Source: Elusimicrobiota bacterium
Lineage (GTDB): Bacteria > Elusimicrobiota > Elusimicrobia > UBA1565
Assembly (NCBI GenBank): GCA_043819795.1
Contig: JBDREN010000178.1
Coordinates: 1-33,911 of the forward strand
Direction: 5' to 3'
DNA: 33,911 nt
A program made the translations under genes and the position numbers. Position 1 is the first letter of the stretch, and each line of letters begins with the position of its first letter. The notes under the pieces were generated by a model that saw only the letters and a list, made by a program, of their open reading frames with translations, made no database searches and was not told the DNA's origin. Below, in pieces: positions 3,101 to 23,400 of the stretch.

Positions 3101-3114
3101 CGAGCCGAGGCGCG

Positions 3115-3585
3115 ATGTCCAAAGAGATTTCCAGAGGCGATCCGCCCGGGGGCCGCATCCTCGTCGTGGACGACGAGGACGCGACCGCGCGCGCGCTGAC
3201 CCGCCATCTGGAGGGGGAGGGGCACCGCACCCGCGTCGCGGCCACCGGCGAGGAGGCGATCAGGCTCATCGGAACCGAGCGATTCGATTTCATCCTGCTC
3301 GACATCGGACTGCCAGGGATGACCGGGTTCGAGGCCATCGAGGAGATCGCCCAGCGCACGGATGCCCCCGTGGTCCTGATGAGCGGCCACGCCGACGAGG
3401 AGGCCCGCCGGGACGCCCTGCTGCTCGGCGCCAAGGACCTGCTGGCGAAGCCTTTTGATTTCGCGGAGGTGGACCGGATCGTCCCGAAGTGGCTCGCCCC
3501 CCTGAGCCGCGGGGGCCCCCTGAGCCCTGCGGGCGAAGGCACGATGTGCGTGTCCCCTCCCCCGCGGGGAGGGACACGGGGATAG
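3115..3585 (+). CDS. Single-domain response regulator (REC)
   Basis: ILVVDDE, LLDIGLPGMTG, LMSG, AKPF motifs. Confidence 0.9.
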   Translation: MSKEISRGDPPGGRILVVDDEDATARALTRHLEGEGHRTRVAATGEEAIRLIGTERFDFILLDIGLPGMTGFEAIEEIAQRTDAPVVLMSGHADEEARRDALLLGAKDLLAKPFDFAEVDRIVPKWLAPLSRGGPLSPAGEGTMCVSPPPRGGTRG

Positions 3586-3609
3586 GCGGGGGATAGCCCC
3601 CCCTGCTTG

Positions 3610-3634
3610 AGCGGCCCCCCGTGGGGGGCCCGCT
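3610..3634. terminator. GC-rich hairpin between convergent genes
   Basis: AGCGGCCCCCC-GT-GGGGGGCCCGCT between the stops at 3585 (+) and 3633 (-); no U-tract. Confidence 0.4.
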
Positions 3635-5585
3635 AACTCGACGGCGCGTCCAGCAGCTCCCGCAGCGTCCGGGCCAGGTCGTAGGGCGAGAAAGGCTTCT
3701 GCAGGAAAGACACGCCCGGCTTCATCATCCCCCGCTCGGCGACGACCTCCTCCGAATAGCCCGACATGTAAAGGACCTTGATCCCGGGCCTCGCCGACAC
3801 CACGCGCTTGGCCAGATCGCGGCCGTCCATGCCCGGCATCACCAGGTCCGTGAGCAGCAGGTGTATCCTCTCCGGGTGGCGCGAGGTCATCCGGAGCGCC
3901 TCCTCGCCGTTGGCGGCGGCCAGGATCTTGTAGCCGCAGTTGCCCAGCACGCGCAGCGCCGACTTCCGGACGATCCCGTCGTCCTCCACGAGCAGGACGG
4001 TCTCCGAGCCCCGGACCTCCGCGAGAGGGGCCTGCCCCCCGCCCTCCTTCCTGGGCATCTCCCCGGTGGCCGGCAGGTAGATCATGAAGGTGGTGCCTTG
4101 CCCCTCGACGGAGTAGACCGAGATGTAGCCGCCGAGCTGCTTGACGATGCCGTATACCGTGGACAAGCCGAGACCCGTCCCCTTCCCCTTCTCCTTCGTC
4201 GTGAAGAAAGGCTCGAAGATGTTCGGCAGGACATCCGCCTTGATGCCGCTCCCCGTGTCGCTCACCGCCATCATCGCGTAGCGTCCGGCCGGTATGGTGA
4301 ACTGCTCGCAGGCGAGCGGCTCGCGAAGCTGCGCGTTGGACGTCTCGACGACCAGCTTGCCGCCGTGCGGCATGGCGTCGCCGGCGTTGACGGCGAGATT
4401 GAGGATCACCTGCTCGAGCTGGGCCGCGTCGGCCTTCACGTGCCCGAGCGCGGGGCTCAGGACGGTGACGAAGCTGATGTCCTCCGAGATGGTGCGCCTG
4501 AGCAGCTTCTCGAGGTCCGCGATGACCGCGTTGAGGTCGACGACCTCCAGGCGAAGCACCTGTTTGCGGCTGAACGCCAGGAGCTGCCGGGTGAGCGCGG
4601 CCGCCTTGGAGCCCGCGTTCTTGATCTCCAGGACGTCGTCGCGCTTCGGGTCGTCGCCCTTCATGTCCTGCAGAAGGAAGTCGGCATAGGCGCCGATCGC
4701 CGTCAAGAGGTTGTTGAAGTCATGGGCGATGCCGCCCGCCAGCCGCCCCACCGCCTCCAGCTTCTGCGACTGGAAGAACTGCGCGCGGCTCTTCTCGAGC
4801 GCCTGCTCCGCTTCCTTGCTCGCGGTGACGTCCCGTCCGATCTTCATGACCGCGCCCGGGCGGCCGGCCTCGTCTCTGAGAGCGACGTTGGCGGTGCAGG
4901 CGAAATCCAGGGCCCTGCCGTCCTTGGCGATCAAGCGCATCTCCTGCTCGTGGATCCGGCCGTCCTCGAACGCCCGCCGCACGAGGCACGGCTGCGCTTC
5001 GCACGGGGTCTCCCGGGCCCGGCAGGCCGCGTAGCACTTCCTGCCCAGGAGATCGGCGCCGAACGTCTCCCGCGCGCTGTCGTTCGCCCAGACGATGTCG
5101 TAGCCCTTGTCCACCATGATGATGCAGTCGCTCATGGACCGCAGCATCGCGTCGAGCTTCCCTTCGCTCTCCCGCAGGGCCTCCTCCGCCCGCTTGCCCT
5201 GCCTGCGATGCTCCGCTTCCCGCAGCTCCCGCTCGATGACGGCGCCGAGCCGGGTCAGCTGGTCCTTCCTCAGGTAGTCGGCGGCGCCGGCGCGCATGGC
5301 CTCGGCCGCGGCTTCCTCGCCGGCCCCGGCCGAGACGACGATGACCGGGATGTCGGGATCCTTCCGCCGCACGAGCGCGATCGCCGCGGGAGCGTCGAAC
5401 TGCGGCATGCTGTAATCGCATAAGACGATGTCCCATGCCCGCTTCTGCAGGGAGGCCTTCATCCCCATCGCCGTATCGACCCGCTCGAAGACCGGCTCGT
5501 AACCCCCGAATCGCAGCGCGCGCACGAGGAGATCGGCGTCCCGCTTCAGGTCCTCGACCATCAAGACGCGGAGCTTTCTGCTCAT
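3633..5585 (-). CDS. Hybrid sensor histidine kinase REC-PAS-HisKA-HATPase-REC (CckA-like)
   Basis: H-box GGIAHDFNNLL, N-box NLAVNA, G1 SDTGSG, F/G2 FEPFFTTKEKGKGTGLGL, N- and C-terminal receiver domains. Confidence 0.95.
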   Translation of the reverse strand: MSRKLRVLMVEDLKRDADLLVRALRFGGYEPVFERVDTAMGMKASLQKRAWDIVLCDYSMPQFDAPAAIALVRRKDPDIPVIVVSAGAGEEAAAEAMRAGAADYLRKDQLTRLGAVIERELREAEHRRQGKRAEEALRESEGKLDAMLRSMSDCIIMVDKGYDIVWANDSARETFGADLLGRKCYAACRARETPCEAQPCLVRRAFEDGRIHEQEMRLIAKDGRALDFACTANVALRDEAGRPGAVMKIGRDVTASKEAEQALEKSRAQFFQSQKLEAVGRLAGGIAHDFNNLLTAIGAYADFLLQDMKGDDPKRDDVLEIKNAGSKAAALTRQLLAFSRKQVLRLEVVDLNAVIADLEKLLRRTISEDISFVTVLSPALGHVKADAAQLEQVILNLAVNAGDAMPHGGKLVVETSNAQLREPLACEQFTIPAGRYAMMAVSDTGSGIKADVLPNIFEPFFTTKEKGKGTGLGLSTVYGIVKQLGGYISVYSVEGQGTTFMIYLPATGEMPRKEGGGQAPLAEVRGSETVLLVEDDGIVRKSALRVLGNCGYKILAAANGEEALRMTSRHPERIHLLLTDLVMPGMDGRDLAKRVVSARPGIKVLYMSGYSEEVVAERGMMKPGVSFLQKPFSPYDLARTLRELLDAPSS

Positions 5586-5605
5586 CGGTCCCTAACTAGG
5601 GGCTC

Positions 5606-8158
5606 TCAGCCCCAGAGCACCATGCCCATCTCGTAAGGATGGACCCGGTCGGGGTGGTGCGGAAGCACCCGCACGGTGAAACCCCGCCGGCCGCTCGCGC
5701 CGCACGGCACCCTTCCCCGATAGAGGTGTACGCCCCCCTCGGCCGGGCGCTCGTGGGCCATCCGGACGCTCTCCCCCGCGTCGATCTCCCCCGGCGTGGA
5801 GAGGTGGCCGTGGTAGAGCTGGATCTCCACGTCCTCCGGCGCCAGGCCGCCCAGCCGGACATGGGCCGTCACCTCCAGCTCGTCGCCGACCGACAAGGCG
5901 CGATTGCCGTCCGAATCGACCTTCTCGATGCGGACGTCCTTCCATCGCTCGCGCAGCTTGCCGCGCCACGCGGCGAGCGCCTTGGCGCGCTCCTGCGAGC
6001 CGGCCGTCAGCTCCTCGTGCTTAGTGGACGCGGCCAAATACGACCGGCCGACATAGTCGGACATCATGCGATGGGTATTGAAGACGGCGCCGATCTTCTC
6101 CATGGACTTCTTCATCTTGGCGATCCAGCCGTGGGGCAGGCCGTCGCGTCCCCGGTCGTAGAACAGCGGGATCACCTCCTCCTCGAGGATGTCGTAGAGC
6201 GTGCTGCTTTCGACGTCGTCCTGGGCCTCGCGCGCGTCGTACTCCTCCCCGCTCCCGATGACCCATCCCACCTCCGGGCTGTAGCCCTCGCACCACCACC
6301 CGTCGAGCGTGCTCAGGTTGAGCGCCCCGTTGACCGCCGCCTTCATGCCGCTCGTGCCCGACGCCTCCAGCGGCCTGCGGGGGGTGTTGAGCCAGACGTC
6401 CGCGCCCTGCACGAAATAGCGCGCGACGTTCATGTCGTAGTCCTCGATGAACACGATGTGCTCGCGGAACCCCTCCTCCCGGACGAAGTGGACGAGCTCC
6501 TTCAGGACCTCCTTGCCGGCGCCGTCCATCGGGTGGGCCTTGCCGGCGAAGATGATCTGGACCGGCCGCTTGGGATCGTTGAGCAGGCGCCTGAGCCGGT
6601 CCCGGTTCTTCAGGATCAGGGTGGCCCGCTTGTAGGCGGCGAAACGCCGCCCGAAACAGATGGTCAGAGCCGTCGGATCGAGCAGCTCATCGGCCTGCTG
6701 CACGATGTGCGGCGACGCCCCCCGGCGCTCCAGCTGGATGCGCAGCCGCTTGCGGGCGAACCATACGAGCCGCTCGCGGCGGAGATCGTGCGCGCGCCAC
6801 ATCTCCGAGTCCGGGATCTTGCGGACCCGCCTCCAGACGGAGAAGTCCGTCGGCTCCTCCTGGAACTTCGGCCCGAGATACCGGTCCAGCAGCTCCGTCA
6901 TCTCGTGACTGAGCCACGAGCGCGTGTGTATGCCGTTGGTCAGGCCCGAGATCGGGATCTCCTCGACGGGAAGCCCGGGCCACAGCCCGCGCCACATGCG
7001 CCGGGAGGTCCGGCCGTGCAGCTGGCTCACCCCGTTGCAGTGCGCCGCGGAGCGCAGCGCCAGCACGGTCAGGCAAAAATCCTCCTCCTGGTTGGCCGGA
7101 TTCTCGCGACCCAAGGCGAGGAATTCCTTCCAGGAGATGCCGATCTTCTCGACGAACGCGCCCAGGTAGCGCTTCACGAGGTCCGGCTGGAATCTCTCGT
7201 TTCCCGCCGGCACCGGCGTGTGGGTCGTGAAGACGGTCGTGGCCCAGACCACCTCCCAAGCCTCGGCCAGGCTCAGGCGGTAGCGCTCCACGACCTGACG
7301 GACCCGCTCGAGCGCCATGAACGCGGAATGCCCCTCGTTCATATGGCATACGCAGGGCTCATACCCCAGCGCGGCGAGGGCCCGCATCCCTCCCACGCCG
7401 AGCAGGATCTCCTGCCGAAGGCGCATGTCCCGGTCGCCGACGTACAGGCGCTTGGTGATGCCCCGCTGCTCGGGCGCATTCTCGGGGAGGTCGGTGTCGA
7501 GCAAAAACAGCAGGATGCGTCCGACCTGGACCCGCCAGATCTCGAACGTGACCGACTGGCCGTCCAGCTCGATGCTGGACCGGACCGGCTGGCCGTCCTG
7601 GCCGAGGGCGCGCTCCACGGGCATGTTGAACCAGTCGTTGATGGGATACGCCTCCTGCTGCCATCCGTCCGCGGTCAGATACTGGGAGCAGTATCCCTCC
7701 CGGTAGAGCAGGCCGACGGCCACCAGCGGCAGGCCGAGGTCGCTGGCGGACTTCAGGTGGTCTCCCGCAAGCGCCCCCAACCCCCCCGAGTAGATCGGCA
7801 GGCTCACGTCGATGCCGTACTCCATGGAGAAATACGCGAACGTCCGCTTGGCGAACTCCGGATGCTCCTCCTGCATCCAGGTCGGGGCCTCCATGTACAC
7901 CTTGAGCCGGTCGCGCACCCGCTTCATGTTCGCGACGAAGCTGTCATCCTTCGCGAGCTCCGCGAAGCGCTCCTGGGGAAGGCGGCTCAGCATCAAGGCC
8001 GGGTTCTGGTATGTCTTCTCCCAGTACTCCGGGTCCATGCGGATGAAGAGCTGGACGGCCTCCCAGTCCCAGCAGTAGTGGAGATTGAAAGCTATCTCCC
8101 TTAAAGGCCCAAGCGCCTTCGGCAGGCGCGGCAAGACGTCGAACTGCCTGATGTTCAT
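5606..8158 (-). CDS. glgP: Alpha-glucan (glycogen) phosphorylase
   Basis: YFSMEYG, YSGGLG, HMNEGH, FTTHTPVPAG and the PLP-site motif EASGTSGMK; probable start MNIRQF at 8158. Confidence 0.96.
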   Translation of the reverse strand: MNIRQFDVLPRLPKALGPLREIAFNLHYCWDWEAVQLFIRMDPEYWEKTYQNPALMLSRLPQERFAELAKDDSFVANMKRVRDRLKVYMEAPTWMQEEHPEFAKRTFAYFSMEYGIDVSLPIYSGGLGALAGDHLKSASDLGLPLVAVGLLYREGYCSQYLTADGWQQEAYPINDWFNMPVERALGQDGQPVRSSIELDGQSVTFEIWRVQVGRILLFLLDTDLPENAPEQRGITKRLYVGDRDMRLRQEILLGVGGMRALAALGYEPCVCHMNEGHSAFMALERVRQVVERYRLSLAEAWEVVWATTVFTTHTPVPAGNERFQPDLVKRYLGAFVEKIGISWKEFLALGRENPANQEEDFCLTVLALRSAAHCNGVSQLHGRTSRRMWRGLWPGLPVEEIPISGLTNGIHTRSWLSHEMTELLDRYLGPKFQEEPTDFSVWRRVRKIPDSEMWRAHDLRRERLVWFARKRLRIQLERRGASPHIVQQADELLDPTALTICFGRRFAAYKRATLILKNRDRLRRLLNDPKRPVQIIFAGKAHPMDGAGKEVLKELVHFVREEGFREHIVFIEDYDMNVARYFVQGADVWLNTPRRPLEASGTSGMKAAVNGALNLSTLDGWWCEGYSPEVGWVIGSGEEYDAREAQDDVESSTLYDILEEEVIPLFYDRGRDGLPHGWIAKMKKSMEKIGAVFNTHRMMSDYVGRSYLAASTKHEELTAGSQERAKALAAWRGKLRERWKDVRIEKVDSDGNRALSVGDELEVTAHVRLGGLAPEDVEIQLYHGHLSTPGEIDAGESVRMAHERPAEGGVHLYRGRVPCGASGRRGFTVRVLPHHPDRVHPYEMGMVLWG

Positions 8159-11674: not shown

Positions 11675-11733
11675 CGCCGCAAGCCCTGCTTGCGGCGCCT
11701 ACACCTTCGAGTTATCGGGAGCCTCGTCGCAAG
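11675..11733 (+). repeat. 59-nt structured intergenic repeat, copy A
   Basis: Aligns without gaps to 13113-13171 and 13194-13252; starts with a CGCCGC...GCGGCG hairpin and ends GTCGCAAG. Confidence 0.85.
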
Positions 11734-11763: not shown

Positions 11764-13032
11764 TCAAGTCTGTTTTGTCGAGACGCGCGGCGCGGAGCTC
11801 TTGCCGGGACCGCCCGCCGCGCAGGCTTGGGGGACCGGAAGGCTCAAGGTGAAGACGGCCCCCTTGTCTTTCCCCTCCGAGTGGGCCTCCAGGGTCCCGC
11901 CGCATTTCATCAGGATGTCCCGGCAGATCGAAAGGCCCAGGCCGGTGCCCTTCCTCCCGCGCGTCGTGAAGAACTTGTCGAACAGCCGCGGCAGGTACTC
12001 GGGCTCGATGCCGACCCCCGTGTCCTTGACCCGGACATCGACTTTCCCGTCGCGCGCCTCCGCCGAGACGTCGAGCGTCCCGCCGTCGGGCATGGCATGG
12101 AAAGCGTTGACGAAGAGGTTGATGAACACCCGCCGCAGGGGGTTCTTGGCGGCGTTGACTTTGGGAAGGCCTCCCGGGACGCTGGAGCGGACCGCCACTT
12201 TGTTCATCCTGGCTTGAGTGTCGATGAGGTCCAGCGTCTCCCGGAGCACCTCCTCCAGGACGACCTCCTCCAGCTTGAACTCGGATTTCCGGATGAGATC
12301 CATGAGGTTGTGCAGGATCCCCTGACAGGAGCGCGCGTTCCTCCGGATCTTCTCGACGATCGTGCGGGCGGGAGAGCCCGCCTGCGTCTGCGACATCAGC
12401 AAGTCGGCCCCGGTAAGCAGGTTCATCACGGGGTTGCTCAGATCGTGCGCCACCCCGCCCACCAGAAAGCCAAGGTCCGCCATCTTGGCGCTCTGGGCCA
12501 CCTGGTTCTCCAGACGCCGCTTCTCCTCGGCCTGATCCATCTCGTAGAGCAGGAAACCCACGTGCGGGGAAAGCCATTCCAATATGCGGACGTCGTCGCG
12601 GTCGAAACCGCCCGGCTTGTTCAAGAGCTCCACGACGCCCACCGCGGCCCCGTCGTGATAGAAGGCGGAGGCCAGGAGGGTCTTGGTTTCGTAGCCGCTG
12701 CCCAGATCGACGGACGCATCGAAGCGGGGGTCGTTGTACGGGTCGTTGGTGAGGTAGCTCTTGCCCTCCTGGACCACGCGCCCCGCCATGCCCTGCCCGA
12801 ACTCGAGCTCCACGGGCTCGTCAAGACCCAGGGCGAACTGGCTCCTGAGCTTGCCGTTCTTCACGAGGAACAAGGTGGCGCGTTCGCACCGGAACTGTGC
12901 GACGAAGGACTCCGCGAGCACGGGCCAGAAATCCACCAACGTCCGCGCCTCGATGGACAGCCTGTTCAGGCGACCCATCATATAAAGCGCCTGCTCGAAC
13001 TCGGTGAAATCCTCGTAGGATAGCTTGATCAT
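11764..13032 (-). CDS. GAF-domain sensor histidine kinase (cytoplasmic)
   Basis: GAF with ND.Y.DPRF...D..SGYETK...ELLNK..GF...D; H-box AHDLSNP; NLFVNA, DTGVG, FFTT..KGTGLGL. Confidence 0.93.
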   Translation of the reverse strand: MIKLSYEDFTEFEQALYMMGRLNRLSIEARTLVDFWPVLAESFVAQFRCERATLFLVKNGKLRSQFALGLDEPVELEFGQGMAGRVVQEGKSYLTNDPYNDPRFDASVDLGSGYETKTLLASAFYHDGAAVGVVELLNKPGGFDRDDVRILEWLSPHVGFLLYEMDQAEEKRRLENQVAQSAKMADLGFLVGGVAHDLSNPVMNLLTGADLLMSQTQAGSPARTIVEKIRRNARSCQGILHNLMDLIRKSEFKLEEVVLEEVLRETLDLIDTQARMNKVAVRSSVPGGLPKVNAAKNPLRRVFINLFVNAFHAMPDGGTLDVSAEARDGKVDVRVKDTGVGIEPEYLPRLFDKFFTTRGRKGTGLGLSICRDILMKCGGTLEAHSEGKDKGAVFTLSLPVPQACAAGGPGKSSAPRVSTKQT

Positions 13033-13042
13033 CGTCGTCCTC

Positions 13043-13072
13043 AGTATACGCCCGAGAACGGCCGCCCGTCAA
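13043..13072 (-). promoter_or_regulatory. Sigma70-type promoter of the GAF kinase
   Basis: Minus-strand TTGACG (13072-13067) N18 TATACT (13048-13043). Confidence 0.55.
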
Positions 13073-13112
13073 GCACGTCATGCCGGAAGTCCTGACCGGG
13101 GGGTCAACTCAA

Positions 13113-13252
13113 CGCCGCAGGCCTGCCCTGCGGCGTTTATACCCCTGCGTTATCGGGGACCCCGTCGCAAGAACCCCGTTGTCGTTGTGCCAGCGCCGCA
13201 AGCTCGCCCCGCGGCGTTTATACCTCCGCGTCATCGGGAGCTTTGTCGCAAG
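13113..13252 (+). repeat. 59-nt structured intergenic repeat, tandem copies B (13113-13171) and C (13194-13252)
   Basis: Two gap-free copies 81 nt apart with a 22-nt spacer, homologous to 11675-11733. Confidence 0.85.
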
Positions 13253-13254
13253 AG

Positions 13255-14256
13255 CTATTCGGCGGAAACGCCCTCGCCCGCCCGCGCGCTGCTCCAGGTC
13301 CCCATGGGCCAAGTCTCGTTGGCGTGCAGAAGGAGGCTCTTGTCCGCGCGGGCGGCCGTTATGAAATCGCGGACCTCGTCCGAGCGCCAGGCGCGCTTGT
13401 AGGCCTCCCACGCCTCCGGCAGGGAAAGCTTCCTGAGGTCGGCCGGGGCGAAGGGCAGGGCGTTGAGCAGCTTCACCTTGCCGTCGGGGACGACGAGCAC
13501 CATGGCTTGGGGGCTGTCGAGCCGCGTCCTCATCTCGGTGAGGATGTCCCAGGGATAGATCGAGAGCCTCACCGGCTCTCCCCGCTTCTCGGCGCGCTCC
13601 TTGAGGGCCTGTGCCGCGCGCCGCCACTCCTCCTCGGAAGGAGCCAAGTCGTCCCAACGACGCGCGGCCCTTCCCAGGCGCATCATCGGGCCCGTCACGA
13701 AGCTTTCGCAGCCGGTCCTCGCCGCGATGTCGTAGACGTCGGCGATCTCCGAAAGGTTGTGTCTGTTCGGGACGAAGACCAGCTCCGGCGGCATGCCGCG
13801 CTCGGCGAGACGGCTCAAAGCGGCGACGGCCCCGCGGAAATCGCCCCCGGGCCGGACCTTCTCATGGGTCTCGGCCGCCGCGCCGTCGACCGAGATCTGG
13901 ACGCGCCGGACACCGCGCTCCGCCAGCCAGCCGGCCTTCTCGTCGTCGATGCGGAGCCCGTCGGTCTCGATCTTGAGCTCGACGCCGCCGCGGGTCAGGA
14001 CCTCGAAGACGCCCCAGACGTGCGGCACGCCCAAAGGCTCCCCTCCGCCGAAGGCGACGCAGGGCACACCGCAGGCCACGATGTCGCCCGCGAGCCTCAG
14101 ACACTCTTCTCTGGTCAGCTCATCCGGCCAGGCATTATCGGGTCCCGACTCTTCGCAGCAGTGGACGCAATGGGCCCGGCAGCGGTTGGTGAGTTGCCAC
14201 GCGAGGAAGAGGGGGGCCCGGTAATCGTCTACCGAGGCCCCCCTCTCCGTCTTCAC
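13255..14256 (-). CDS. Radical SAM enzyme 3 (PqqE/MftC/NirJ-like core), 333 aa
   Basis: WQLTNRCRAHCVHC, GGGEP, VQISVDG...HEKVR. GTG at 14256 overlaps the precursor stop (GTGA). The longer 14403 start in the track overlaps the precursor and is unlikely. Confidence 0.92.
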   Translation of the reverse strand: MKTERGASVDDYRAPLFLAWQLTNRCRAHCVHCCEESGPDNAWPDELTREECLRLAGDIVACGVPCVAFGGGEPLGVPHVWGVFEVLTRGGVELKIETDGLRIDDEKAGWLAERGVRRVQISVDGAAAETHEKVRPGGDFRGAVAALSRLAERGMPPELVFVPNRHNLSEIADVYDIAARTGCESFVTGPMMRLGRAARRWDDLAPSEEEWRRAAQALKERAEKRGEPVRLSIYPWDILTEMRTRLDSPQAMVLVVPDGKVKLLNALPFAPADLRKLSLPEAWEAYKRAWRSDEVRDFITAARADKSLLLHANETWPMGTWSSARAGEGVSAE

Positions 14257-14369
14257 GTGAACCGAATGTACGGCTGAGCCATCACCCGCTCGGTGACTTC
14301 CTCGAGGAGAGGCGTCTCCCAAACGAGCTTCTCGACCGTCACATTCGCTGCGGTCTTCTTGTCGTTCAT
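14253..14369 (-). CDS. Candidate RiPP precursor peptide, 38 aa: MNDKKTAANVTVEKLVWETPLLEEVTERVMAQPYIRFT
   Basis: AAAGGAG RBS 5 nt before ATG 14369; TGA 14255-14253 coupled to the next GTG start; WxxPxL leader-like motif; lies in an operon with an RRE and three radical SAM genes. Confidence 0.85.
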   Translation of the reverse strand: MNDKKTAANVTVEKLVWETPLLEEVTERVMAQPYIRFT

Positions 14370-14436
14370 GCTGTCTCCTTTGTCCCGCATCCGCCGTCCG
14401 CAAGGAGACGGCGTCCGGCGGACCGGTCCGCAGGGA

Positions 14437-15420
14437 TCAAGTCCCCGCGGCCAAAACGAGTCCCCGCTCCTTTCCCGAGCGCAGCGGCAGCCAGCGATCG
14501 GCCTCCGCCAAGCGCGCCGGATCGGCCAGGACGCGCGCGCACGCCTCCCGCACCTCCGGGCGCGCCCACGCGCGCCTATAGGCGTCCCAAGCCTCGGCGA
14601 GCGATTGCCGGCGCAAGTCGGCGCAGGTGTACGGCAGGACCGCCGCGACCTTCACCCTCCCGTCCGGCAACACCAGAAGCGTCGCCGGCGGCTGGAGGAG
14701 GCACTCCTCGAGGCCCTCTTCGATCGTGAACGGGCTCCAGCGGAGCTCGAGGTCCGGCCCGATCTCCTTTTTCTTCCTCTCGAGTCCCGCGCGGAAGGCC
14801 GCGTATTGACCGCTCGTGGGCGCGATGTCCTTCCAAAGCTTGGCCGCCCGGCCGAGGCGCATGAGCGCTCCCGTGTTGAACCGGAACGCGCCCAGGGCCG
14901 CCGCCCGGTCCATGACGGCCTCCGCCTCGTGGACGTTGAGACGCGTCGGGGCGAAGGTCACCTCGAGAGGCAGCCCGGCCTCACGGACGGCCCGGCAGGC
15001 CGCGTGCGCCTTCTCGAGCGAGGCGCCGGGACGCTGCCGGGAGTAGGTCCGCTGCGTGTCTCCGTCGATACTGATCTGGACGGAGCGGATCGGGAGCTTG
15101 GCCAGGCGGCGCGCCTCGTCCGGCCCCAGGAGCTGCCCGTTCGACTCGATCTTGAGCTCGACGCCCCCCTCCCCGAGTATCCCCGCGATCTCGAAGAACC
15201 AGGGGACGGTCAGCGGCTCCCCGCCGCACAGCATGAGATACGGGACTCCCCCGGCCGCGATGTCCTCGGCGAGGCGGACGGCCGCGTCGCGGGCCAACTC
15301 CCCCGGGACGGTCCCGCCGGGGGCCGAGCACGCGCAGCAATGGACGCAGGCCAGGTTGCAGCCCCTGGTAAGCTCCCAGGAGACGAACAACGGCGCGCGA
15401 AGCAGATCGATCGAGCTCAT
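14437..15420 (-). CDS. Radical SAM enzyme 2, 327 aa
   Basis: WELTRGCNLACVHC, CGGEP, ESNG, VQISIDG; ATG 15420 overlaps the prenyltransferase stop (ATGA). Confidence 0.92.
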   Translation of the reverse strand: MSSIDLLRAPLFVSWELTRGCNLACVHCCACSAPGGTVPGELARDAAVRLAEDIAAGGVPYLMLCGGEPLTVPWFFEIAGILGEGGVELKIESNGQLLGPDEARRLAKLPIRSVQISIDGDTQRTYSRQRPGASLEKAHAACRAVREAGLPLEVTFAPTRLNVHEAEAVMDRAAALGAFRFNTGALMRLGRAAKLWKDIAPTSGQYAAFRAGLERKKKEIGPDLELRWSPFTIEEGLEECLLQPPATLLVLPDGRVKVAAVLPYTCADLRRQSLAEAWDAYRRAWARPEVREACARVLADPARLAEADRWLPLRSGKERGLVLAAGT

Positions 15421-16325
15421 GCGTTGCACATGCGCGACAGCCAATGATTCACGACCAGAGAAAGCGTGAAAGCGCCGGTCCCCACCAGATAGCAGAGCAC
15501 GACGCTCCGCACGGCCGGAACGAACGCGCGCGGCGTATCGTAGGTCTCGAAGGCCGCGCGCGCGCTGAGAACGAGCAGCGGGACGGCCGCCAAGGCCGCC
15601 AGGACCGGCTTGGGGAAGATCCCCCCGAGCACCCCGAGCACGGGCACCGCCAAGCCGAGGGCGGCCAAAGCCACGTAAAGACGCACCCCGCCCAGCCGGC
15701 CCAGGCGGACCACCAGGTTCCGCTTGCCGACCAGCCGGTCCTGGTGGAAATCCGGGATCTCATTGACCACGGCCAGAGCCGCGATCAGGCAGGCCGGGAC
15801 CAAAGAGGCGGCCAGCGCGCCCCAGGAAAAACGGCCGGTCTGCAGGTGCAGGCTCCCCAGCGTCATCCACGGCCCGTAGGAGAGCGCGATCATGGTCTCG
15901 CCCAGTCCCCGGTAGACCCAGCGGACCGGAGGGCCGACGTAGAAGACGGCCGCCAGCCCGCCCAGCCCCGCGTACGCCAGGACCGGCCAGCCGCCCTGGC
16001 GCGCCAGATAGACGCCGATCAGGGCGGCGGCCGCGAAGGCCGCGATCCCGAGCCAGAGCACCCGATCCTGGATCGGGTCCTCGTCGTCGGGGTTGAACAC
16101 CCGGTCCGTGCCCATGCGCGAGTCGAAGTACTCGTTGAAGGCCTCCACGCCGACCACCGCCAAGAAGATGCCGGACAAGCCCGTCCAGAAAACGCCGGCC
16201 CGGAAGGCGTGCTCCATCCCGTACGCCCAGGCCGCGCCCAGCAGATACGGAAGAAGCCCCGCGTACAGGAAGAATCGGTAGCGGACCAGGCTGAATATCC
16301 TGAGAAGCGCGCGCGGACCGCTCAT
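15417..16325 (-). CDS. UbiA-superfamily prenyltransferase, MenA/UBIAD1-like, 302 aa
   Basis: Multiple TM helices; FNEYFDSRMGTD, YVGPP, GLGE and NEIPDFHQDRLVGKRNLVVRLG motifs. ATG 16325 overlaps the rSAM1 stop (ATGA). This is the C-terminal half of the 657-aa track ORF. Confidence 0.92.
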   Translation of the reverse strand: MSGPRALLRIFSLVRYRFFLYAGLLPYLLGAAWAYGMEHAFRAGVFWTGLSGIFLAVVGVEAFNEYFDSRMGTDRVFNPDDEDPIQDRVLWLGIAAFAAAALIGVYLARQGGWPVLAYAGLGGLAAVFYVGPPVRWVYRGLGETMIALSYGPWMTLGSLHLQTGRFSWGALAASLVPACLIAALAVVNEIPDFHQDRLVGKRNLVVRLGRLGGVRLYVALAALGLAVPVLGVLGGIFPKPVLAALAAVPLLVLSARAAFETYDTPRAFVPAVRSVVLCYLVGTGAFTLSLVVNHWLSRMCNA

Positions 16326-17332
16326 AGCCGGACCCACCGGTGCAGCTCGCGCGTCAGCCGCGGGTCGGCCGCCATATCCGTAACGAACCGGCGGACCCTG
16401 GGGTCCTTCCAGGACCTCTGGAAGTTGGCCCACACCTCGCCGACCGACTCCACGCGCAGGTCGCCGCAGACGAAGGGCAGCGCGTTGATGAGCTTCACCA
16501 GCCCGTTGGGCAGGATGATGAACAGGGCCGCGGGGTTCTCGAGCCTGTAGCGAAGCTCCTCCAGAAGCCCCATCTCGTGGAAGCACACCCGCATCCGCCC
16601 CTCGTACTGCTCGGCCTTCGCGCGAAGGGCATTGAAGTACTCGGCGTACTGCTCCTCCGAGGGCTCCAGCAGGCCCCATGCCTTGACCGCGTTCCCGGTG
16701 TACATCGTCCTGCCCGTGAAGAAGCTCTCGGCTCCGAGCGACCACGCCAGGTCGACGGCGTCGGCGATCTCGTGGACGTTGAATCTCGTGGGCGAATGGT
16801 TGATCTCCGTCGGGACCCCGGCGGCCTTCAGGTTCCGGAGGCCATCCATCATCGCGTCGAAGTCCCCGCGGACCCGCAGCCGGTCGAACGTCGCCTTGCT
16901 GGCGCCGTCCATGCTGACCTGGACGGCCTTGACCCCGATGTCCTTGAGCCGCCCGCAGCTCTCGGTGGTCAGGAGATGGGCGTTGGTCTCGACCTTGAGC
17001 TGGATCCCGTTGGCGCAGACGTATTCGGCCATCTCGAAAAAGTGGGGATGGACCAGAGGCTCGCCGCCCGAGAACGCCACGTAAGGCACCTGGGCGTCCA
17101 CGAGCTGCTTGAGGACGGCGGACACCCGCTCCCTGGAGAGCTCGTCCGCGAAAGCCTTGCCCGGCCCCGACTCCTCCAGGCAGTGGAGGCAGGCGAGGTT
17201 GCACTCGTTGGTGATCTGCCACGCCACGTAGAGCGGAGCGCCGAGGTCTCCCGACGACGTCCGCCCGGGGACGGGAAGCTCCGCGGACCCGGCTGCGGCG
17301 ATAGGCGCGGCGGTCGCGGCCTTCATCCTCAC
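16322..17332 (-). CDS. Radical SAM enzyme 1, about 336 aa
   Basis: WQITNECNLACLHC, SGGEP, VETNA, VQVSMDGA; GTG 17332 overlaps the PqqD stop (ATG 17326 is an alternative start). Confidence 0.93.
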   Translation of the reverse strand: MRMKAATAAPIAAAGSAELPVPGRTSSGDLGAPLYVAWQITNECNLACLHCLEESGPGKAFADELSRERVSAVLKQLVDAQVPYVAFSGGEPLVHPHFFEMAEYVCANGIQLKVETNAHLLTTESCGRLKDIGVKAVQVSMDGASKATFDRLRVRGDFDAMMDGLRNLKAAGVPTEINHSPTRFNVHEIADAVDLAWSLGAESFFTGRTMYTGNAVKAWGLLEPSEEQYAEYFNALRAKAEQYEGRMRVCFHEMGLLEELRYRLENPAALFIILPNGLVKLINALPFVCGDLRVESVGEVWANFQRSWKDPRVRRFVTDMAADPRLTRELHRWVRL

Positions 17333-17580
17333 TCGGCGACGAGGCCCTTCTCCTTGAGGGAGGCGATGAACTCCGCGGCCTGCTTCTCAATCGTGCCGTC
17401 GGGGTCCTGGTAGCGGTCCTTCAGCCGCCCGATGACCGCTTGGTCGTCCCCGCCGGCCAGGATCTCGCGCATGACGGCCGCCCCCGTCCGGCTGAGCGTG
17501 AATACTTTCTCCGAGCGGGTCTCGAAGAGGACCCCCCCGAACTTCTCCTCGCGGAACTTGACGTGCTTCGCCAGCTTCAT
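17329..17580 (-). CDS. PqqD-family RiPP recognition element (RRE) protein, 83 aa
   Basis: GGAGGAGG RBS. KFREEKFGGVLF...KVFTLSRTGAAVMREI...IGRLKDRY...FIASLKEKGLV fits the three-strand/three-helix PqqD/MftB pattern. Confidence 0.88.
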   Translation of the reverse strand: MKLAKHVKFREEKFGGVLFETRSEKVFTLSRTGAAVMREILAGGDDQAVIGRLKDRYQDPDGTIEKQAAEFIASLKEKGLVAE

Positions 17581-17784
17581 ATTGTCCTCCTCCCGCGGAG
17601 GCTCTCCGCTCCCGCTCGCGCCGCACGCCTCCCGCTCCACGATCCATTCCATCTTGGAGCGCAAAAACGAGCGGAGCTCCTCCGCCTCGGACGCGCCTCC
17701 GTCACGGCCCTCGCCGGGCTCCAGCCGGGCATTGTACTCGCCGGACCTCCAGGCGCGGCGGGCCAGCCTCTGATAAAGGCTCAC
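17581..17784 (-). other. 68-codon open segment in frame with and directly upstream of the RRE gene
   Basis: GTG 17784 follows the upstream TAG after one base, with a GGAGGG RBS-like sequence nearby; no stop before the RRE ATG. Confidence 0.4.
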
Positions 17785-17785
17785 C

Positions 17786-18739
17786 CTAGAACTCCCTCCC
17801 GACCATAAGCCGCATGAAGGCCTTGAGGGGCGCGCCTTCCGCCTTCACCGGCAGCCCGTCGATAAGGCGCAGAGCGTCGTCCAGGATCCCGCGCGCCCTG
17901 GCGCGCGCCGCCTCCAGGTGGCCGCGCTCCTCGAAGAGGGCCAAGGCCCGCTCGAGACGCCCGGCGTCCCGAGGGACCGCGCGCCAGATCGTCATAAACC
18001 GGGACCGCGAGCCCTCGTCGTCCATGGCGAGGATGCCCGGAAGCGTCAGGCGCCCGTTGGCCAGGTCCTGGCCCGGAGGCTTTCCCGCCACCGCCTCGTC
18101 GAGCGTGACATCGTGGATGTCGTCGACGATCTGAAGCAGGATTCCCGCCGAGCGCCCCAGGCGGGGCGGGTCCTCCCGCCGATGAGGCAGGACGCCGGCC
18201 TCCGAGAGGACCTCTCCCGTCCATTCGAATAGGGCGCCCGTCTTCCGGGCCGCGAGCCCGTAGTACCCCTCGACCGAGACGTCCAGGCTGCCCCGCAGGA
18301 ACTCCTCCTGGATCTCGCCCACCGCCATCTCGCGGACGGACCGGACCAGGGAGCGCGCCGCGCGCGGGGAAACCCCCAAGGCCTCGTCCATACCCTCGGT
18401 GAAGGCAAGGTCCCCCAGGAGCACCCCGGTCCGGTCCCCGAACTGGGCGTTCGGGGTCGGACAACCGCGCCGCATGAGGGCCTCGTCGATGCAGTCGTCC
18501 TGCAGAAGAGAGGCGTTATGGATGAGCTCGACGACGCGGGCGACGCGTTCACGGACATCGCGGTCGACGCCCAGCGCCGCCCCGACCAGCAGGGCGAAGC
18601 GGGCCCGCAGCATCTTGCCGGGCCGGCCGATGACCGAGACCAGGTGATCGCCGAGGCGGCCGCCGAGGCGGGCGGCCCTGCGCTCCAGCCCCTCTCGCAC
18701 GCGCGCGAGGGAGTCGTCGACGGCGTCGAGAGTCTTCAT
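17786..18739 (-). CDS. Polyprenyl diphosphate synthase, long-chain trans type (HepT/IspB-like)
   Basis: GKMLR, FARM ELIHNASLLQDDCID..RRG, LLGD, KTG, SARM QIVDDIHD, GKPPGQDL..G.LTLP. Confidence 0.93.
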   Translation of the reverse strand: MKTLDAVDDSLARVREGLERRAARLGGRLGDHLVSVIGRPGKMLRARFALLVGAALGVDRDVRERVARVVELIHNASLLQDDCIDEALMRRGCPTPNAQFGDRTGVLLGDLAFTEGMDEALGVSPRAARSLVRSVREMAVGEIQEEFLRGSLDVSVEGYYGLAARKTGALFEWTGEVLSEAGVLPHRREDPPRLGRSAGILLQIVDDIHDVTLDEAVAGKPPGQDLANGRLTLPGILAMDDEGSRSRFMTIWRAVPRDAGRLERALALFEERGHLEAARARARGILDDALRLIDGLPVKAEGAPLKAFMRLMVGREF

Positions 18740-18746
18740 CGAAAAG

Positions 18747-18775
18747 ATTCTACGGCATTCCCGACAGACAGGTCA
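18747..18775 (-). promoter_or_regulatory. Sigma70-type promoter of the prenyl/rSAM operon, probably giving a leaderless mRNA
   Basis: Minus-strand TTGACC (18775-18770) N17 TAGAAT (18752-18747); ATG 18739 lies 7 nt further and has no RBS. Confidence 0.7.
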
Positions 18776-19131
18776 ATCCAACGCCGCGAGCGCGCTTGCG
18801 GCTCTCGCGCGAGGCATGCGACACGCGAAAACGCGCGGCTGGAACTCCGCGACGCGGGTCTCCGGTCGTGCTCGAGCCGGCGGCTGCTTCCGGAAACGGG
18901 GCTGCGCGCCTCCCTGGCCGGCGATGAAGCCGACGGGGGGCTTCCCCCCGGCCTCGGCCGGGCCGCCCGCGAGCCCCGCCGTGCCACGAGGCTCGAGAAT
19001 GATGCCGAAAGACGGCGCGCCCCGCGCCGCTCCTCAGACGCCCTGGCGGACGGCTGTCTAAATTGCTATAAAATCCATAGATAATCCCAATCCCGTCGGC
19101 AAAGGGAAAGACCCATACAAAGGAGGCTGTA

Positions 19132-19890
19132 GTGCCCAGGCGGATCCCTCTCTCCGCGGTCGTCCCCTGCTACAACGAGGCGCCCAACATTCCCCCCTTG
19201 CGGCAGACCCTGACGGAGCTTCCGCTATTCAGCGGCGGACAGCTGGAGATCGTCCTGGTCGACGACGGGTCGCGGGACGACACGTGGAAGCTCCTGTCCG
19301 AGTGGGCTCGGAGCACCCCTCGCGTCAAGGCCGTACGGCTCTTCGAGAACTGCGGGAACCAACACGCGATACTCGCCGGGATCCATCAATCCTCGGGGGA
19401 AGCTGTCGCCGTCCTGGACGCGGACCTGCAGGACCCCCCGGAGCATCTAGTGAAGATGCTCGACAAGCTGGAGAAATCCTCCGTTTCGGCGGTCATCGGC
19501 ATCCAAAAAGGCCAGAACGAGAGGGGCAAGGCCCCGGCCTGGCTCAAGGCGGCCGCCGTCCTGGTCCACCCCTTGCGCCCGGGAGAGGTGGACTTCTGCG
19601 TCATGAAGCGCCCCGTTGCCCGGGACCTGCTGGCTCTGGGTGACGCGGAGACGCCCTTCTGCGTGCGGCGCTACCGGGCCCTGCGCAACCACAAGAAGGC
19701 CTATTTTTCCTACGAGCGCCGGCCGCGGCGCTCGGGCCAGACGAAATTCCCCACCGCCAAGCGGGCCGCTCTGGGGTGGCGCATCTTCCGCTCCATGCGA
19801 CTGCAGCGCTCGGACCGGACGGACGTGTTCATCCCCCGCATGCAGACCCTCGTCGAGAGCAAGGCGTCAGGTGTTAACTTTGTCAACTAA
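19132..19890 (+). CDS. Glycosyltransferase family 2 (GtrB/ArnC/DPM1-like)
   Basis: VVPCYNE, VDDGSRD, DADLQDPP, R..GQTK; AAGGAGG RBS before GTG; lacks the C-terminal TM pair of GtrB. Confidence 0.88.
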   Translation: MPRRIPLSAVVPCYNEAPNIPPLRQTLTELPLFSGGQLEIVLVDDGSRDDTWKLLSEWARSTPRVKAVRLFENCGNQHAILAGIHQSSGEAVAVLDADLQDPPEHLVKMLDKLEKSSVSAVIGIQKGQNERGKAPAWLKAAAVLVHPLRPGEVDFCVMKRPVARDLLALGDAETPFCVRRYRALRNHKKAYFSYERRPRRSGQTKFPTAKRAALGWRIFRSMRLQRSDRTDVFIPRMQTLVESKASGVNFVN

Positions 19891-19938
19891 CTCCGGCCAG
19901 TGGGGGCCACTTAGTTAACAAAGTTAACACCTGACGCC
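19863..19938. repeat. 28-bp inverted repeat (1 mismatch) with 20-nt spacer
   Basis: GGCGTCAGGTGTTAACTTTGTCAACTAA (19863-19890) and TTAGTTAACAAAGTTAACACCTGACGCC (19911-19938). Confidence 0.92.
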
Positions 19939-19947
19939 ATTTTGACC

Positions 19948-20367
19948 ATGCGATTCAAGAAGGAAGGCTCGCGATATTTCGTAAGGCTCGAACGGGGCGA
20001 GCAGGTCCTCGACGCGCTCGCGGGCTTCGCGCTGGAGGAGGGCGTCGCGTCCGCGTCGTTCTCCGGGATCGGCGCGGTGGAGGAACCGACTCTGGGGTAC
20101 TACGATCTCCCCAAACGAGCCTACATGAAGAAGGAATTCTCCGGCGAGTACGAGGTGGCCGGCCTTTTGGGCAACATCTGCGAGCTCGACGGCAAGCCCA
20201 TGGTCCACGCCCACGCGATCCTCGCGGACGCGCAGTGCCGGACGTTCGGCGGGCACCTCTTCGCGGCGCGCGTGTCCCTCACGCTCGAGGTCAGCGTCCA
20301 GTCGTTCTCCTTCAAGATGCGGCGCGAGCCCGACGCCGAGACCGGCCTCAAGCTCATATCAATGTGA
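19948..20367 (+). CDS. PPC/DUF296 domain protein
   Basis: RLERGE, GIGAV, LGYYD, E...LLGNI, HAH, GGHL, TLEV motifs. Confidence 0.9.
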   Translation: MRFKKEGSRYFVRLERGEQVLDALAGFALEEGVASASFSGIGAVEEPTLGYYDLPKRAYMKKEFSGEYEVAGLLGNICELDGKPMVHAHAILADAQCRTFGGHLFAARVSLTLEVSVQSFSFKMRREPDAETGLKLISM

Positions 20368-20461: not shown

Positions 20462-23400
20462 CTATCGCGGGGACGCGGGGCGCGGGATGCCCAGGTAGAC
20501 CGTCGACCACAGTTGCACGGCGTTCGCTTCGGTCCTGTGTCCCACGATATCCGCGAACGACACGCTCTTGGCGCGGCCGTCCTCCATGATATCGATACGA
20601 AGGCCGGAGTTCCGCGGCGAAGCCGCCATACGCTCCGCGAGCTCGCCGAACGGCGCGTGCTTGACGCGGCCGTCCTCCACGGTCCAAGACCACAGCTCGG
20701 AGCTTCGCAGCGGCTCGGTCCCGTCGATGGCCTCCCACAAAAGCGCCTGCGCCCGCTTCAGCGCGTTCCGCGTCGAGGACGGAAGGTCCTTCCTCTCCAG
20801 CTGACGCCGCAGCCCGGCCGCCCACACCGCCTGCTGCCAGGACCAGATCACGGCCCCGTGGTAGTGGCCGCGGGTGAAGGAACGCCGCAGCGAATCGCCG
20901 GAAGAGAAGCCCGGGTTGGCCGCGACCAAGCCCGCCGGGGTCCTCAGGCCGCCCGGGAAAGGCCGGATGACCCTCTCGGCGGCCTGTTCGAGATACTCCG
21001 CCGGGGGATCGCGGAAAAGCAGCATGAAGCCCTCGTCCGAGCTCATGACCGGCACCGGCTGGCCGTCCTCGTGCAGGGCGACCGCCGAGAAGACCGTCTC
21101 CTCCGCCGTCTCGGCGAGGGCGAAGTCCAGGCCCAGTTCGGCCGCGTAGTCCCCGAGCCACTCGCGCGCGTGAGCGGCGGGGATATTCACCAGAAAATAT
21201 TCCCGGGCCCGGTCCCAAGCCCGGGCGAGCCGCCGGGCCTCGGCGGCCGCGGCCTTCCGGCCGAAGAGCCCGGTCTCGATCAGACGCGCCGATGCCTCGA
21301 GCGCGGCGGGCACGAAAGCGGCGTTCACGTCGAAAGGGATGCGCCCGAGACCCAGGCCGAGGCGGCTGTCCCGCCAGTTCCCCGCGTCTCTGCCGGGCGC
21401 GAGCGCGATCAAGGTGGCGGGACCCGGATCCCGGGCGAAAGGCTCGGCCCTCTTCAGGACGTACGCCATGTTCCTGCGCAATGCGTCGCGGTAGGTCACT
21501 CCCGAGGGGGCAAGCCGGCTCAGAAAGGCCGGGGCCCTGGCGTTTCCTTCCGCGGAGTCCAACAGATAAGCTGCCGCCACCGGCGCCAGCAGAAAGTCGT
21601 CGTCGATCATCCTGTAATCGTGGAGCGGAGCGCGCGGATCGGACGGCGGATCCTCGGAATTCGAGTTCCGCAACGCCGCCCAGTCGCCGATATCCTCCTC
21701 ATGCGCCACCCGTCCCTCCGGGTCCAGGCGGTCGAGCACCGCGCCCAGCCCGGCCTCGATCGCCGCGGGCCGGAGGTTCGGCAGAAGAAGCCGGAGCGAG
21801 AGCAGCGTGTCGCGCCCGAAGTAGGTCAAAAACCGCCACGAACCGGCGAGCAGCTTCTCGCGGTAGCAGAGAAACGCGAGAGCCTTCAGGCTCCCCGGGT
21901 CCGCCCCCTCATCGCTCTTCAGCAGCTCCGTGGACGCGATGGGCGTCAAGGGAGGCTCGTCGGTCAGGGCGGTGATCCGGAAACGAAGAGCGCCGCCTTC
22001 CGGCGGCGCTTCGATCGCTATCTTTCCTTCCCGGCCTTCCTCCGTCCTGCCGCCGTCCAGTGCCTCGATCCCGAGCGAGTAGCCGTGTCGCCCGGCCAGA
22101 TCGGCGCGACGGAAGACGAGCGGCGGACCTCTTCCCACCATATGCGCGACCTCGCCGGGGACCTCTCCCGTATTCATGTAATCCCGCAGCAGCCGGACGC
22201 TGCCCAAGACCGCGCGCCTCACCCGCAGGCGGGGAGCGGAGACGGCGATCGTCGCGCTCACGCCGCGCATGCCGTTCGGGCCCTCCACACCGCTCAGCTC
22301 ACCCTCGACGGACAATTCCGCCGGCTCTCCGAGCTTTTCGAACCACAGCCCCACGCCCGAGTTGCCCGCGGGAAACGCCACGATGAGCCGCGGCTCGGTT
22401 CCCGAGGTCGTCAGCAGGTGCGCGGCCACTCTCCCCCGGCGATAAAAATGGTTGTCGATGCTCCCGTGGGTGATCCGAAACGCGAGGGTTTCCTCGTCCG
22501 CCCGGGGAGCGCGGGACTGCGCGGCCGCGTCCGGCCGCGCGACGCCGCCCGGCGCCCACGGCCAAGCCCCGGAAAACCGGAGCCACAACACGGCCATGCA
22601 GGCCAGGATCGCCGCGACCAGGACGCGGAAGAGCAGGCGCTGCCGGGACGTGGTGGCTTTTTCCAAGAGGGGACGTATTCCCTTCCAGCACAGCCCTTCG
22701 ACCTGCTCCGGCTTGGGCGGCTCGGTCGCCAGCGACACGGCCACCAGGACGATGATGGAGAAGGCGAAGGTGACCCCCGCCGCCATCAAGAACGGGAGCG
22801 GCTCCCACGCCAGAAGGCCCAGCCCCACGCACAGCCCCCCCAGCAGGGAGCTGAGCACGCCCGCGTGGTTGGCCCGCGGCCAGAAAACCCCCAACAAGAA
22901 GGAGGCGGCGATAGGCGGGCTGATCGCGGCCTGGACCTGCTGCAGATACTGGAAGATCGACTCGGCCCTCCGCACCACCAGCACCCAGAGCACCCCGAAC
23001 ACCATGACCACGACCGTGGTTATCCGGCCCACGCGGACCAGCTCCGCCTGGGTGGCGTCGGGCCTGCGAGGCTGATAGAAGTCCAGCGAGACCAACGTGC
23101 CCGTGGAGTTGAGCGTGGAGTCGATCGACGACATGAGCGCCGCGATCAGGGCCGCGGCCACCAGGCCCGTCACGCCCACCGGAAGAAGCTCCCGCACCAT
23201 CACGGGAAAGACCGTCTTGGACTCGATCTCAGGGAAGAGCACCCGGCCGCAGAGCCCGGGCAAGACGAAGAGGAACACGGGCAGGATCTTGAGGAACGCG
23301 GCGAAAAGCGCCCCCATGCGGGCGTTGTGGACGTCGCGCGATCCCAGCACGCGCTGGACGATCACCTGGTCGGTGCACCAATACCAGATCCCCAGGATGG

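Follow-up and report, generated by a model that had tools for sequence, protein, structure and literature searches.

Small metabolites are the source of the rings in the known respiratory quinones, and PQQ and mycofactocin, the redox cofactors known to derive from peptides, are soluble. The PQQ precursor PqqA carries an ExxxY motif in its core, and the mycofactocin precursor MftA ends in Val-Tyr. Isoprenoid transfer to a ribosomal peptide is known from ComX/ComQ, to which the gene cassette described below bears a likeness. In a survey of 26,264 genomes, a quinone pathway was missing from many lineages, and the existence of further quinones was suggested (PMC13386864, section 5); the same paper lists UQ-8 for Usitatibacter palustris. 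The cassette is a candidate for filling one gap among the lineages without a known quinone pathway. In the window analysed here (the whole stretch of DNA, 33,911 nt, from an Elusimicrobiota genome), it encodes a 38-aa peptide, and across genomes this peptide travels with a RiPP recognition element (RRE) protein, one to three radical SAM enzymes (rSAMs), and a MenA-like prenyltransferase. On genomic evidence, the peptide is fairly probably the precursor of a polyprenylated electron carrier of low potential, lipid-anchored in the membrane and doing the job of menaquinone. No description of the cassette was found in literature searches that covered mainly open-access papers, and this widespread gene set is apparently new to the literature.

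The precursor peptide

The peptide ORF (14253..14369, minus strand) reads MNDKKTAANVTVEKLVWETPLLEEVTERVMAQPYIRFT followed by a stop codon when positions 14369 to 14253 are translated, and combines a variable N-terminus with a leader motif, W17xxP20xL22, and a core ending in P-Y-I-R-F-T. The ribosome-binding site AAGGAG (14375..14380, minus strand) lies 5 nt 5' of its ATG, and a site of this kind precedes only 3 of the 159 ATG-started ORFs of 30 to 60 codons in the window, which agrees with the strong site claimed in the preliminary description of this DNA. That description also held that the peptide was masked by an over-extended rSAM ORF and coupled to the third rSAM gene (rSAM3). Both statements are borne out, as the mechanical rSAM3 ORF reaches back to TTG 14403 and spans the peptide in another frame, and the likely rSAM3 start, GTG 14256, at the position equivalent to that at which homologues begin, overlaps the peptide stop (GTGA). 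An alternative in-frame ATG at 14390 would give a 45-aa peptide; the nearest peptide homologues are mostly 36-41 aa long, with the alignment beginning from Met 14369. No match to the peptide was obtained in Pfam and NCBIfam, nor any Rfam match in a scan of positions 12000-20000.

A word-indexed search returned 59 peptide homologues, and a profile gave 99 matches among 50%-identity representatives. When 80 genome loci were picked by similarity to rSAM1 alone, the peptide was found in 74, the remaining six ending short of its position. Among 72 distinct DNA tails, pairwise differences in the last 10 codons comprised 9292 silent and 272 residue-changing ones; third positions varied in 10/10 codons and first positions in 0/10, and all three stop codons were used at the same end position. 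As variation in these codons is almost only silent, the ORF is protein-coding and subject to strong purifying selection, and the hidden precursor proposed earlier is real. An RNA element or spacer in place of a translated peptide at 14369-14253 was ruled out by this codon pattern and is given next to no chance, considering also the three different stops at one position, the ribosome-binding site, and the blank Rfam scan.

The C-terminal motif is conserved among the homologues: the tail P[YFC]IRF[TS], a filter that by its own definition holds P, I, R, and F constant, occurs in 150 of 157 distinct homologues, the other seven, excluded from the tally below, looking frameshifted or unrelated. Within these 150 peptides, WxxPx[LIMV], for which a WxxP in PqqA may offer a parallel, stands at a constant distance from the C-terminus in 141. 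The window core reads VMAQPYIRFT; its Tyr is replaced by Phe in four peptides and by Cys in one, its Gln by Arg in two, and 149 end in Phe-Thr. As judged from these alignments, it is the Phe in penultimate position, rather than the Tyr, that forms the invariant aromatic residue of the core. Of the aromatic C-terminus first described, the Phe thus stands as a fixed feature and the Tyr proves variable. The absence of PqqA-type ExxxY spacing was correctly noted, as was that of an MftA-type end, there being no C-terminal Tyr. Cys occurs within the last 16 residues of a single peptide and the rSAMs have no auxiliary cysteine motif, in agreement with the earlier exclusion of sactipeptide and ranthipeptide chemistry. 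Together with the blank Pfam and NCBIfam searches and an RRE closest to a lasso-peptide one (see below), the fixed-distance leader motif sustains the assignment to a distinct class of RiPP-type precursor. Protein P0399, a weak profile match with the same WxxPxL leader, ends in MAKPYFYLRG and could represent the precursor in a sister system.

Operon organization and maturation enzymes

The operon runs on the minus strand in the order polyprenyl diphosphate synthase, RRE, rSAM1, UbiA-family prenyltransferase, rSAM2, peptide, and rSAM3, with stop-start overlaps between several genes. A sigma-70-like promoter match, TTGACC-18-TAGAAT (18747..18776, minus strand), ends 8 nt before the synthase ATG, and the downstream kinase gene has a promoter-like site of its own, both being consensus matches only. 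Cassette loci are found in Elusimicrobiota, which supply the nearest ones, and in alpha-, beta-, and gamma-proteobacteria, and the order from RRE to rSAM3 is kept among the loci listed except in L072 (10001-13197), a two-rSAM cassette without rSAM2 whose tail reads VTAQPYIRFT. Just 3' of rSAM3 lie two copies (13110-13172 and 13191-13253) of a 63-nt GC-rich palindromic REP-like repeat that recurs at 11675-11733 and has 38 blastn matches over 32 contigs of the host genome. Elsewhere in the window, a sodium:solute symporter shares one frame with a long Pfam-blank downstream region (20462-24131, minus strand; a 1335-aa ORF, either a fusion or adjacent genes), and a large surface protein (30002-33898, minus strand) carries three LamG domains, myxobacterial-type cysteine-rich repeats, and MopE-like motifs.

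The three radical SAM enzymes, rSAM1 (334 aa; 16322..17326), rSAM2 (327 aa; 14437..15420), and rSAM3 (333 aa; 13255..14256, GTG start), are all encoded on the minus strand and carry CxxxCxxC, whose cysteines are the only invariant ones across the aligned rSAMs (63/63); none of the three has SPASM cysteines. The model of rSAM1 (pLDDT 91) retrieved SkfB first and PqqE second in Foldseek. The top NCBIfam match of rSAM3 is MftC, at 124 bits against a cut-off of 265, the cassette enzymes scoring 102-124 bits with this model, and rSAM2 and rSAM3 reach 50-64 bits with the PqqE model TIGR02109 against a cut-off of 381. The stand-alone RRE, a PqqD-family peptide chaperone of 83 aa (17329..17580, minus strand), matches PF05402 at 39.5 bits (cut-off 23.4) and falls under the TIGR03859 cut-off, and its profile finds as best solved relative the lasso-peptide RRE TfuB1 (6jx3, E 3.5e-9). 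The roughly 200 nt between synthase and RRE (17580-17784, minus strand) are open in the RRE frame (a 151-aa ORF from GTG 17784); a strong ribosome-binding site precedes the RRE ATG at 17580, and ORFs of 146-149 aa occupy the equivalent place in several Elusimicrobiota loci.

The cassette encodes no protease, hydroxylase, or methyltransferase. Among the window genes and recurring neighbours there is no PqqB or PqqC, and neither a lasso cyclase nor a leader peptidase appears in the window scan or among those neighbours. Maturation by an rSAM under the guidance of an RRE is characteristic of secreted RiPPs, and the kinship of this RRE with lasso-peptide B1 proteins, as well as the lack of respiratory neighbours at the Elusimicrobiota loci, would fit a prenylated peptide with a role other than electron carriage, be it signalling in the manner of ComX, antimicrobial activity, or service as a cofactor bound to certain anaerobic enzymes. 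Such a role is distinctly unlikely, given that the core is the same in Elusimicrobiota, Proteobacteria, and an Acidianus-like archaeon, that the peptide is present in single copy per genome, that no transporter, protease, or immunity gene recurs beside the cassette, and that the exclusion of MenA reported below is not what this role predicts.

Prenyltransferase and polyprenyl diphosphate synthase

The main functional clue, absent from the preliminary description, is the presence of a MenA-like prenyltransferase and a polyprenyl synthase in the operon of the peptide. The prenyltransferase, a MenA/UBIAD1-like membrane protein of 302 aa (15417..16325, minus strand), is the only PF01040 match of the genome. 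Its best family matches are all MenA models, each below cut-off; with TIGR00751 it reaches 58.2 bits against a cut-off of 102.15, where the stand-alone MenA genes of relatives reach 124-159. Its acidic Mg/diphosphate motifs (NEYFD..GTD, and NxxxDxxxD, here NEIPDFHQD) align with those of MenA genes, and UBIAD1 was the sole match among PDB sequences. A second MenA-like type, at 90.7 bits and likewise sub-cut-off, occurs at L142 (G435:C2, 1378-2514) between genes for a Coq10/RatA START protein and an HdrD/GlpC-like protein, both of which are neighbours of the cassette as well, and has a TD..ERVF stretch in common with the cassette prenyltransferase.

The trans-polyprenyl diphosphate synthase (317 aa; 17786..18739, minus strand) is part of the cassette only in Elusimicrobiota-type loci (14 loci), a group of 17 of which three are labelled just 'bacterium'. 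In polyprenyl synthases, a Tyr or a small residue before the first DDxxD motif distinguishes short-chain from long-chain enzymes. The cassette synthase has Ala where the other synthase of the genome has the Tyr of short-chain enzymes and, with both DDxxD motifs intact, appears to be of the long-chain type.

Variant cassettes

A metagenome scan with Phe-type peptides as queries yielded four loci, L115 to L118. L115 is arranged as peptide, RRE, a single rSAM, and prenyltransferase; L117 has the same gene order on a contig ending inside the prenyltransferase, and L116 ends in the rSAM. The tail of this one-rSAM form reads PFIRFT, so that the Tyr hydroxyl is dispensable there, a finding that speaks against a chemistry of the PQQ kind and directs attention to the terminal Phe-Thr. 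The L115 rSAM is labelled as a protein of a Chloroflexota MAG. L118, a 6.1-kb contig of 34% GC without a prenyltransferase, carries the peptide, an RRE, and two rSAMs; one of these rSAMs falls in a protein cluster that includes sequences from Acidianus ambivalens and A. brierleyi. Its archaeal-looking stretch at 2524-6105 has the two cassette-type rSAMs divergently placed, adjoining nickel-transporter-like and precorrin-methyltransferase-like genes. For A. ambivalens, a quinone make-up varying with growth conditions, and for the Sulfolobales, thiophene quinones, are described in PMC6770870 and PMC11750793.

Distribution of the cassette and of MenA in Proteobacteria

The relation between cassette and MenA was surveyed in the 208 genomes of one betaproteobacterial family, that of genome G226 (locus L023, labelled Casimicrobiaceae). 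The cassette is present in 37 of these, Wolinella-type FrdA in 78, MenA over cut-off in 48, MenD in four, and RquA in 16. The 78 genomes with FrdA divide into 44 with MenA only, 27 with the cassette only, one with both, and six with neither, three of the latter having MenA-like matches just below cut-off; among the 130 genomes without this FrdA, MenA is found in three, the cassette in nine, and neither in 118. Cassette and canonical MenA are thus mutually exclusive among genomes with a menaquinol-type fumarate reductase, the significance of this exclusion being overstated by the kinship of the 208 genomes. Canonical MenA occurs in a single cassette genome of the 37 (G244). The ring genes for vitamin K2 are usually missing from cassette-free relatives too; in this family such relatives have MenA standing alone, and the cassette takes its place. 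The nine cassette genomes without FrdA include one (G335) with broken frdAC beside the cassette, five with NapC with or without Fdh, two with neither of these, and one in which the cassette lies on a short contig. No co-occurrence of rquA with MenA or Wolinella-type FrdA was seen in the 208 genomes.

In an FrdA tree, a gene tree from a quick search covering 72 of the 78 genomes (six partial matches left out), the cassette label requires eight changes, seven of them forced by well-supported branches. The run NuoN-cNMP-malic enzyme-frdC-frdA is followed by menA at locus L156 and by the cassette at L049. This positional swap rests on few cases, as the fetched frdA flank contains menA in only 1 of 41 MenA genomes, the one at L156; it contains cassette genes in 17 of 27 cassette genomes. 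Across Proteobacteria, genes for Frd, NapC/NirT, Fdh, Mtr, or NiFe-hydrogenase flank 43 of 63 loci (38 of the 47 loci of at least 15 kb), a plain tally with no matched background; such clusters adjoin none of the 17 Elusimicrobiota-type loci. A Coq10/RatA START protein is encoded in the flank of eight of the 63, and in 7 of 62 loci the 220 nt preceding the RRE contain FNR-like boxes, compared with 0 in the gene-body control and 0.06 in shuffles.

MenD is absent from 44 of the 48 MenA genomes of the family, which would make salvage of DHNA the norm there and suggests that it is widespread in these betaproteobacteria. The prenyltransferase might then be a diverged MenA of the salvage kind that uses scavenged DHNA, in which case the product of the peptide, RRE, and rSAMs would be a different one and the two would only travel together. 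The exclusion of MenA is equally expected in that case, which alone accounts for the pattern, and no prenyltransferase accompanies the peptide, RRE, and two rSAMs on the short L118 contig. We nonetheless judge this quite unlikely: the prenyltransferase gene is flanked by rSAM1 and rSAM2 and joined to them by stop-start overlaps, it is retained in the rearranged one-rSAM form (L115, L117), all but one of the cassette genomes are without canonical MenA, and the peptide module accompanied none of the stand-alone MenA genes inspected.

Quinone genes in the host genome and its order

The host genome, 90% complete, encodes complex I (NuoA/N) and cytochrome bd, along with a COX1-family protein whose length of 758 aa suggests a qNOR; no MqnA/D was found in it, nor MenB or MenG over cut-off. 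Its sole UbiA-family gene and its sole long-chain-type synthase both lie in the cassette. Across the 76 genomes of the order with at least 85% completeness, NuoA is present in all 76, the cassette rSAMs in 69, MqnA/D in none, and MenB over cut-off in none. A UbiA gene in a cytochrome-oxidase cluster is expected of a haem O synthase. Of 12 other UbiA loci fetched from the order, the strongest other matches, the readable ones lie nearly all in such clusters, with neighbours judged from translated starts. For groundwater Elusimicrobia, 10.1101/765248 describes a respiratory metabolism that includes complexes I, II, and IV.

Seven of the 76 genomes have no cassette, yet possess complex I and no known quinone route. 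In the five that were checked, no MenA-like gene was found; in one of these (G212), the cassette synthase is cut by the contig end, an assembly break, and the other four (92-99% complete) have a short-chain synthase only, so that the absence of the cassette may reflect assembly gaps or true loss.

The cassette could also constitute a third route to ordinary (demethyl)menaquinone, with the peptide supplying or scaffolding a DHNA-like naphthoate and the product being a known quinone. This would be consistent with the replacement of MenA by the cassette alongside the same fumarate reductase, with the MenA models being the best family matches of the prenyltransferase, and with organisms that make menaquinone without a known pathway (PMC13386864, section 10). 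It is an unlikely reading in the light of the distance of the prenyltransferase from MenA (58 bits against a cut-off of 102) and of the absence of MenG from the host genome. Moreover, we know of no precedent for rSAMs alone making a nitrogen-free naphthoate from these residues.

Proposed role

In the proposed pathway to a carrier, the RRE would grip the WxxPxL leader and present the tail to the rSAMs, the synthase would provide a long polyprenyl diphosphate, and the MenA-like enzyme would join the polyprenyl chain to an aromatic head group, probably at the carboxylate-bearing carbon as MenA does. We speculate that the invariant C-terminal residues I-R-F-T, with the penultimate Phe and the terminal Thr at the centre, give rise to the head group by radical cyclisation or oxidative decarboxylation, comparable to the action of MftC at the MftA end. 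Radical backbone scission or a housekeeping protease might then free the head group, and rSAM2 and rSAM3 might perform further oxidations in the Tyr-type form. The support for the carrier is all genomic, and no established chemistry converts these residues into a redox-active ring. In its fullest version, for and against which we see about equal weight, the proposal is of a new class of respiratory carrier, made by trimming and polyprenylating a ribosomal peptide and based on a Phe-derived ring without oxygen, serving as the main pool carrier of the Elusimicrobiota order and as an interchangeable menaquinone substitute in Proteobacteria, Chloroflexota, and Acidianus-like archaea. If true, it would add to the radical SAM enzymes a subfamily that needs no auxiliary clusters for peptide maturation, and to the UbiA fold an enzyme whose substrate is a peptide product.

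Comparison with known systems

The cassette does not fit the definitions of PQQ, mycofactocin, sactipeptide/ranthipeptide, and lasso systems or of canonical MenA. With the PQQ pathway it shares a peptide, a PqqD-type RRE, and a PqqE-like rSAM fold; it differs in having no ExxxY motif, in the variability of both Gln and Tyr, in the lack of PqqB, PqqC, or a protease, in its one to three rSAMs, and in the proposed prenylation. Lasso leader recognition, as by TfuB1 and TbiB1, resembles it in the best match of the RRE and in an aromatic-x-x-Pro-x-Leu leader motif, whereas no cyclase or B2 peptidase is found among the cassette genes. Differences from ComX/ComQ are that the cassette peptide has its Trp in the leader and an invariant core in place of a strain-specific one, that a membrane enzyme of the UbiA fold serves as transferase, and that both DDxxD motifs are intact in the synthase. 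Menaquinone tailing by MenA and UBIAD1 has both acidic motifs in common with the cassette, and MenA also has the same genomic partners, but the cassette enzyme scores below every MenA cut-off, is accompanied by no Men/Mqn ring genes, and is tied to a peptide-maturation module. Mycofactocin likewise involves a short precursor with a near-invariant C-terminus, a stand-alone RRE, and an rSAM maturase, and its product is thought to be a redox cofactor, a likeness to the role proposed here; in contrast to it, the cassette core ends in IRFT, not in Val-Tyr, the SPASM cysteines and MftE/D/F are missing, and a membrane prenyltransferase and a polyprenyl synthase are present. By analogy, the cassette would work as if a cofactor pathway of the mycofactocin type had been coupled to the tailing of a quinone.
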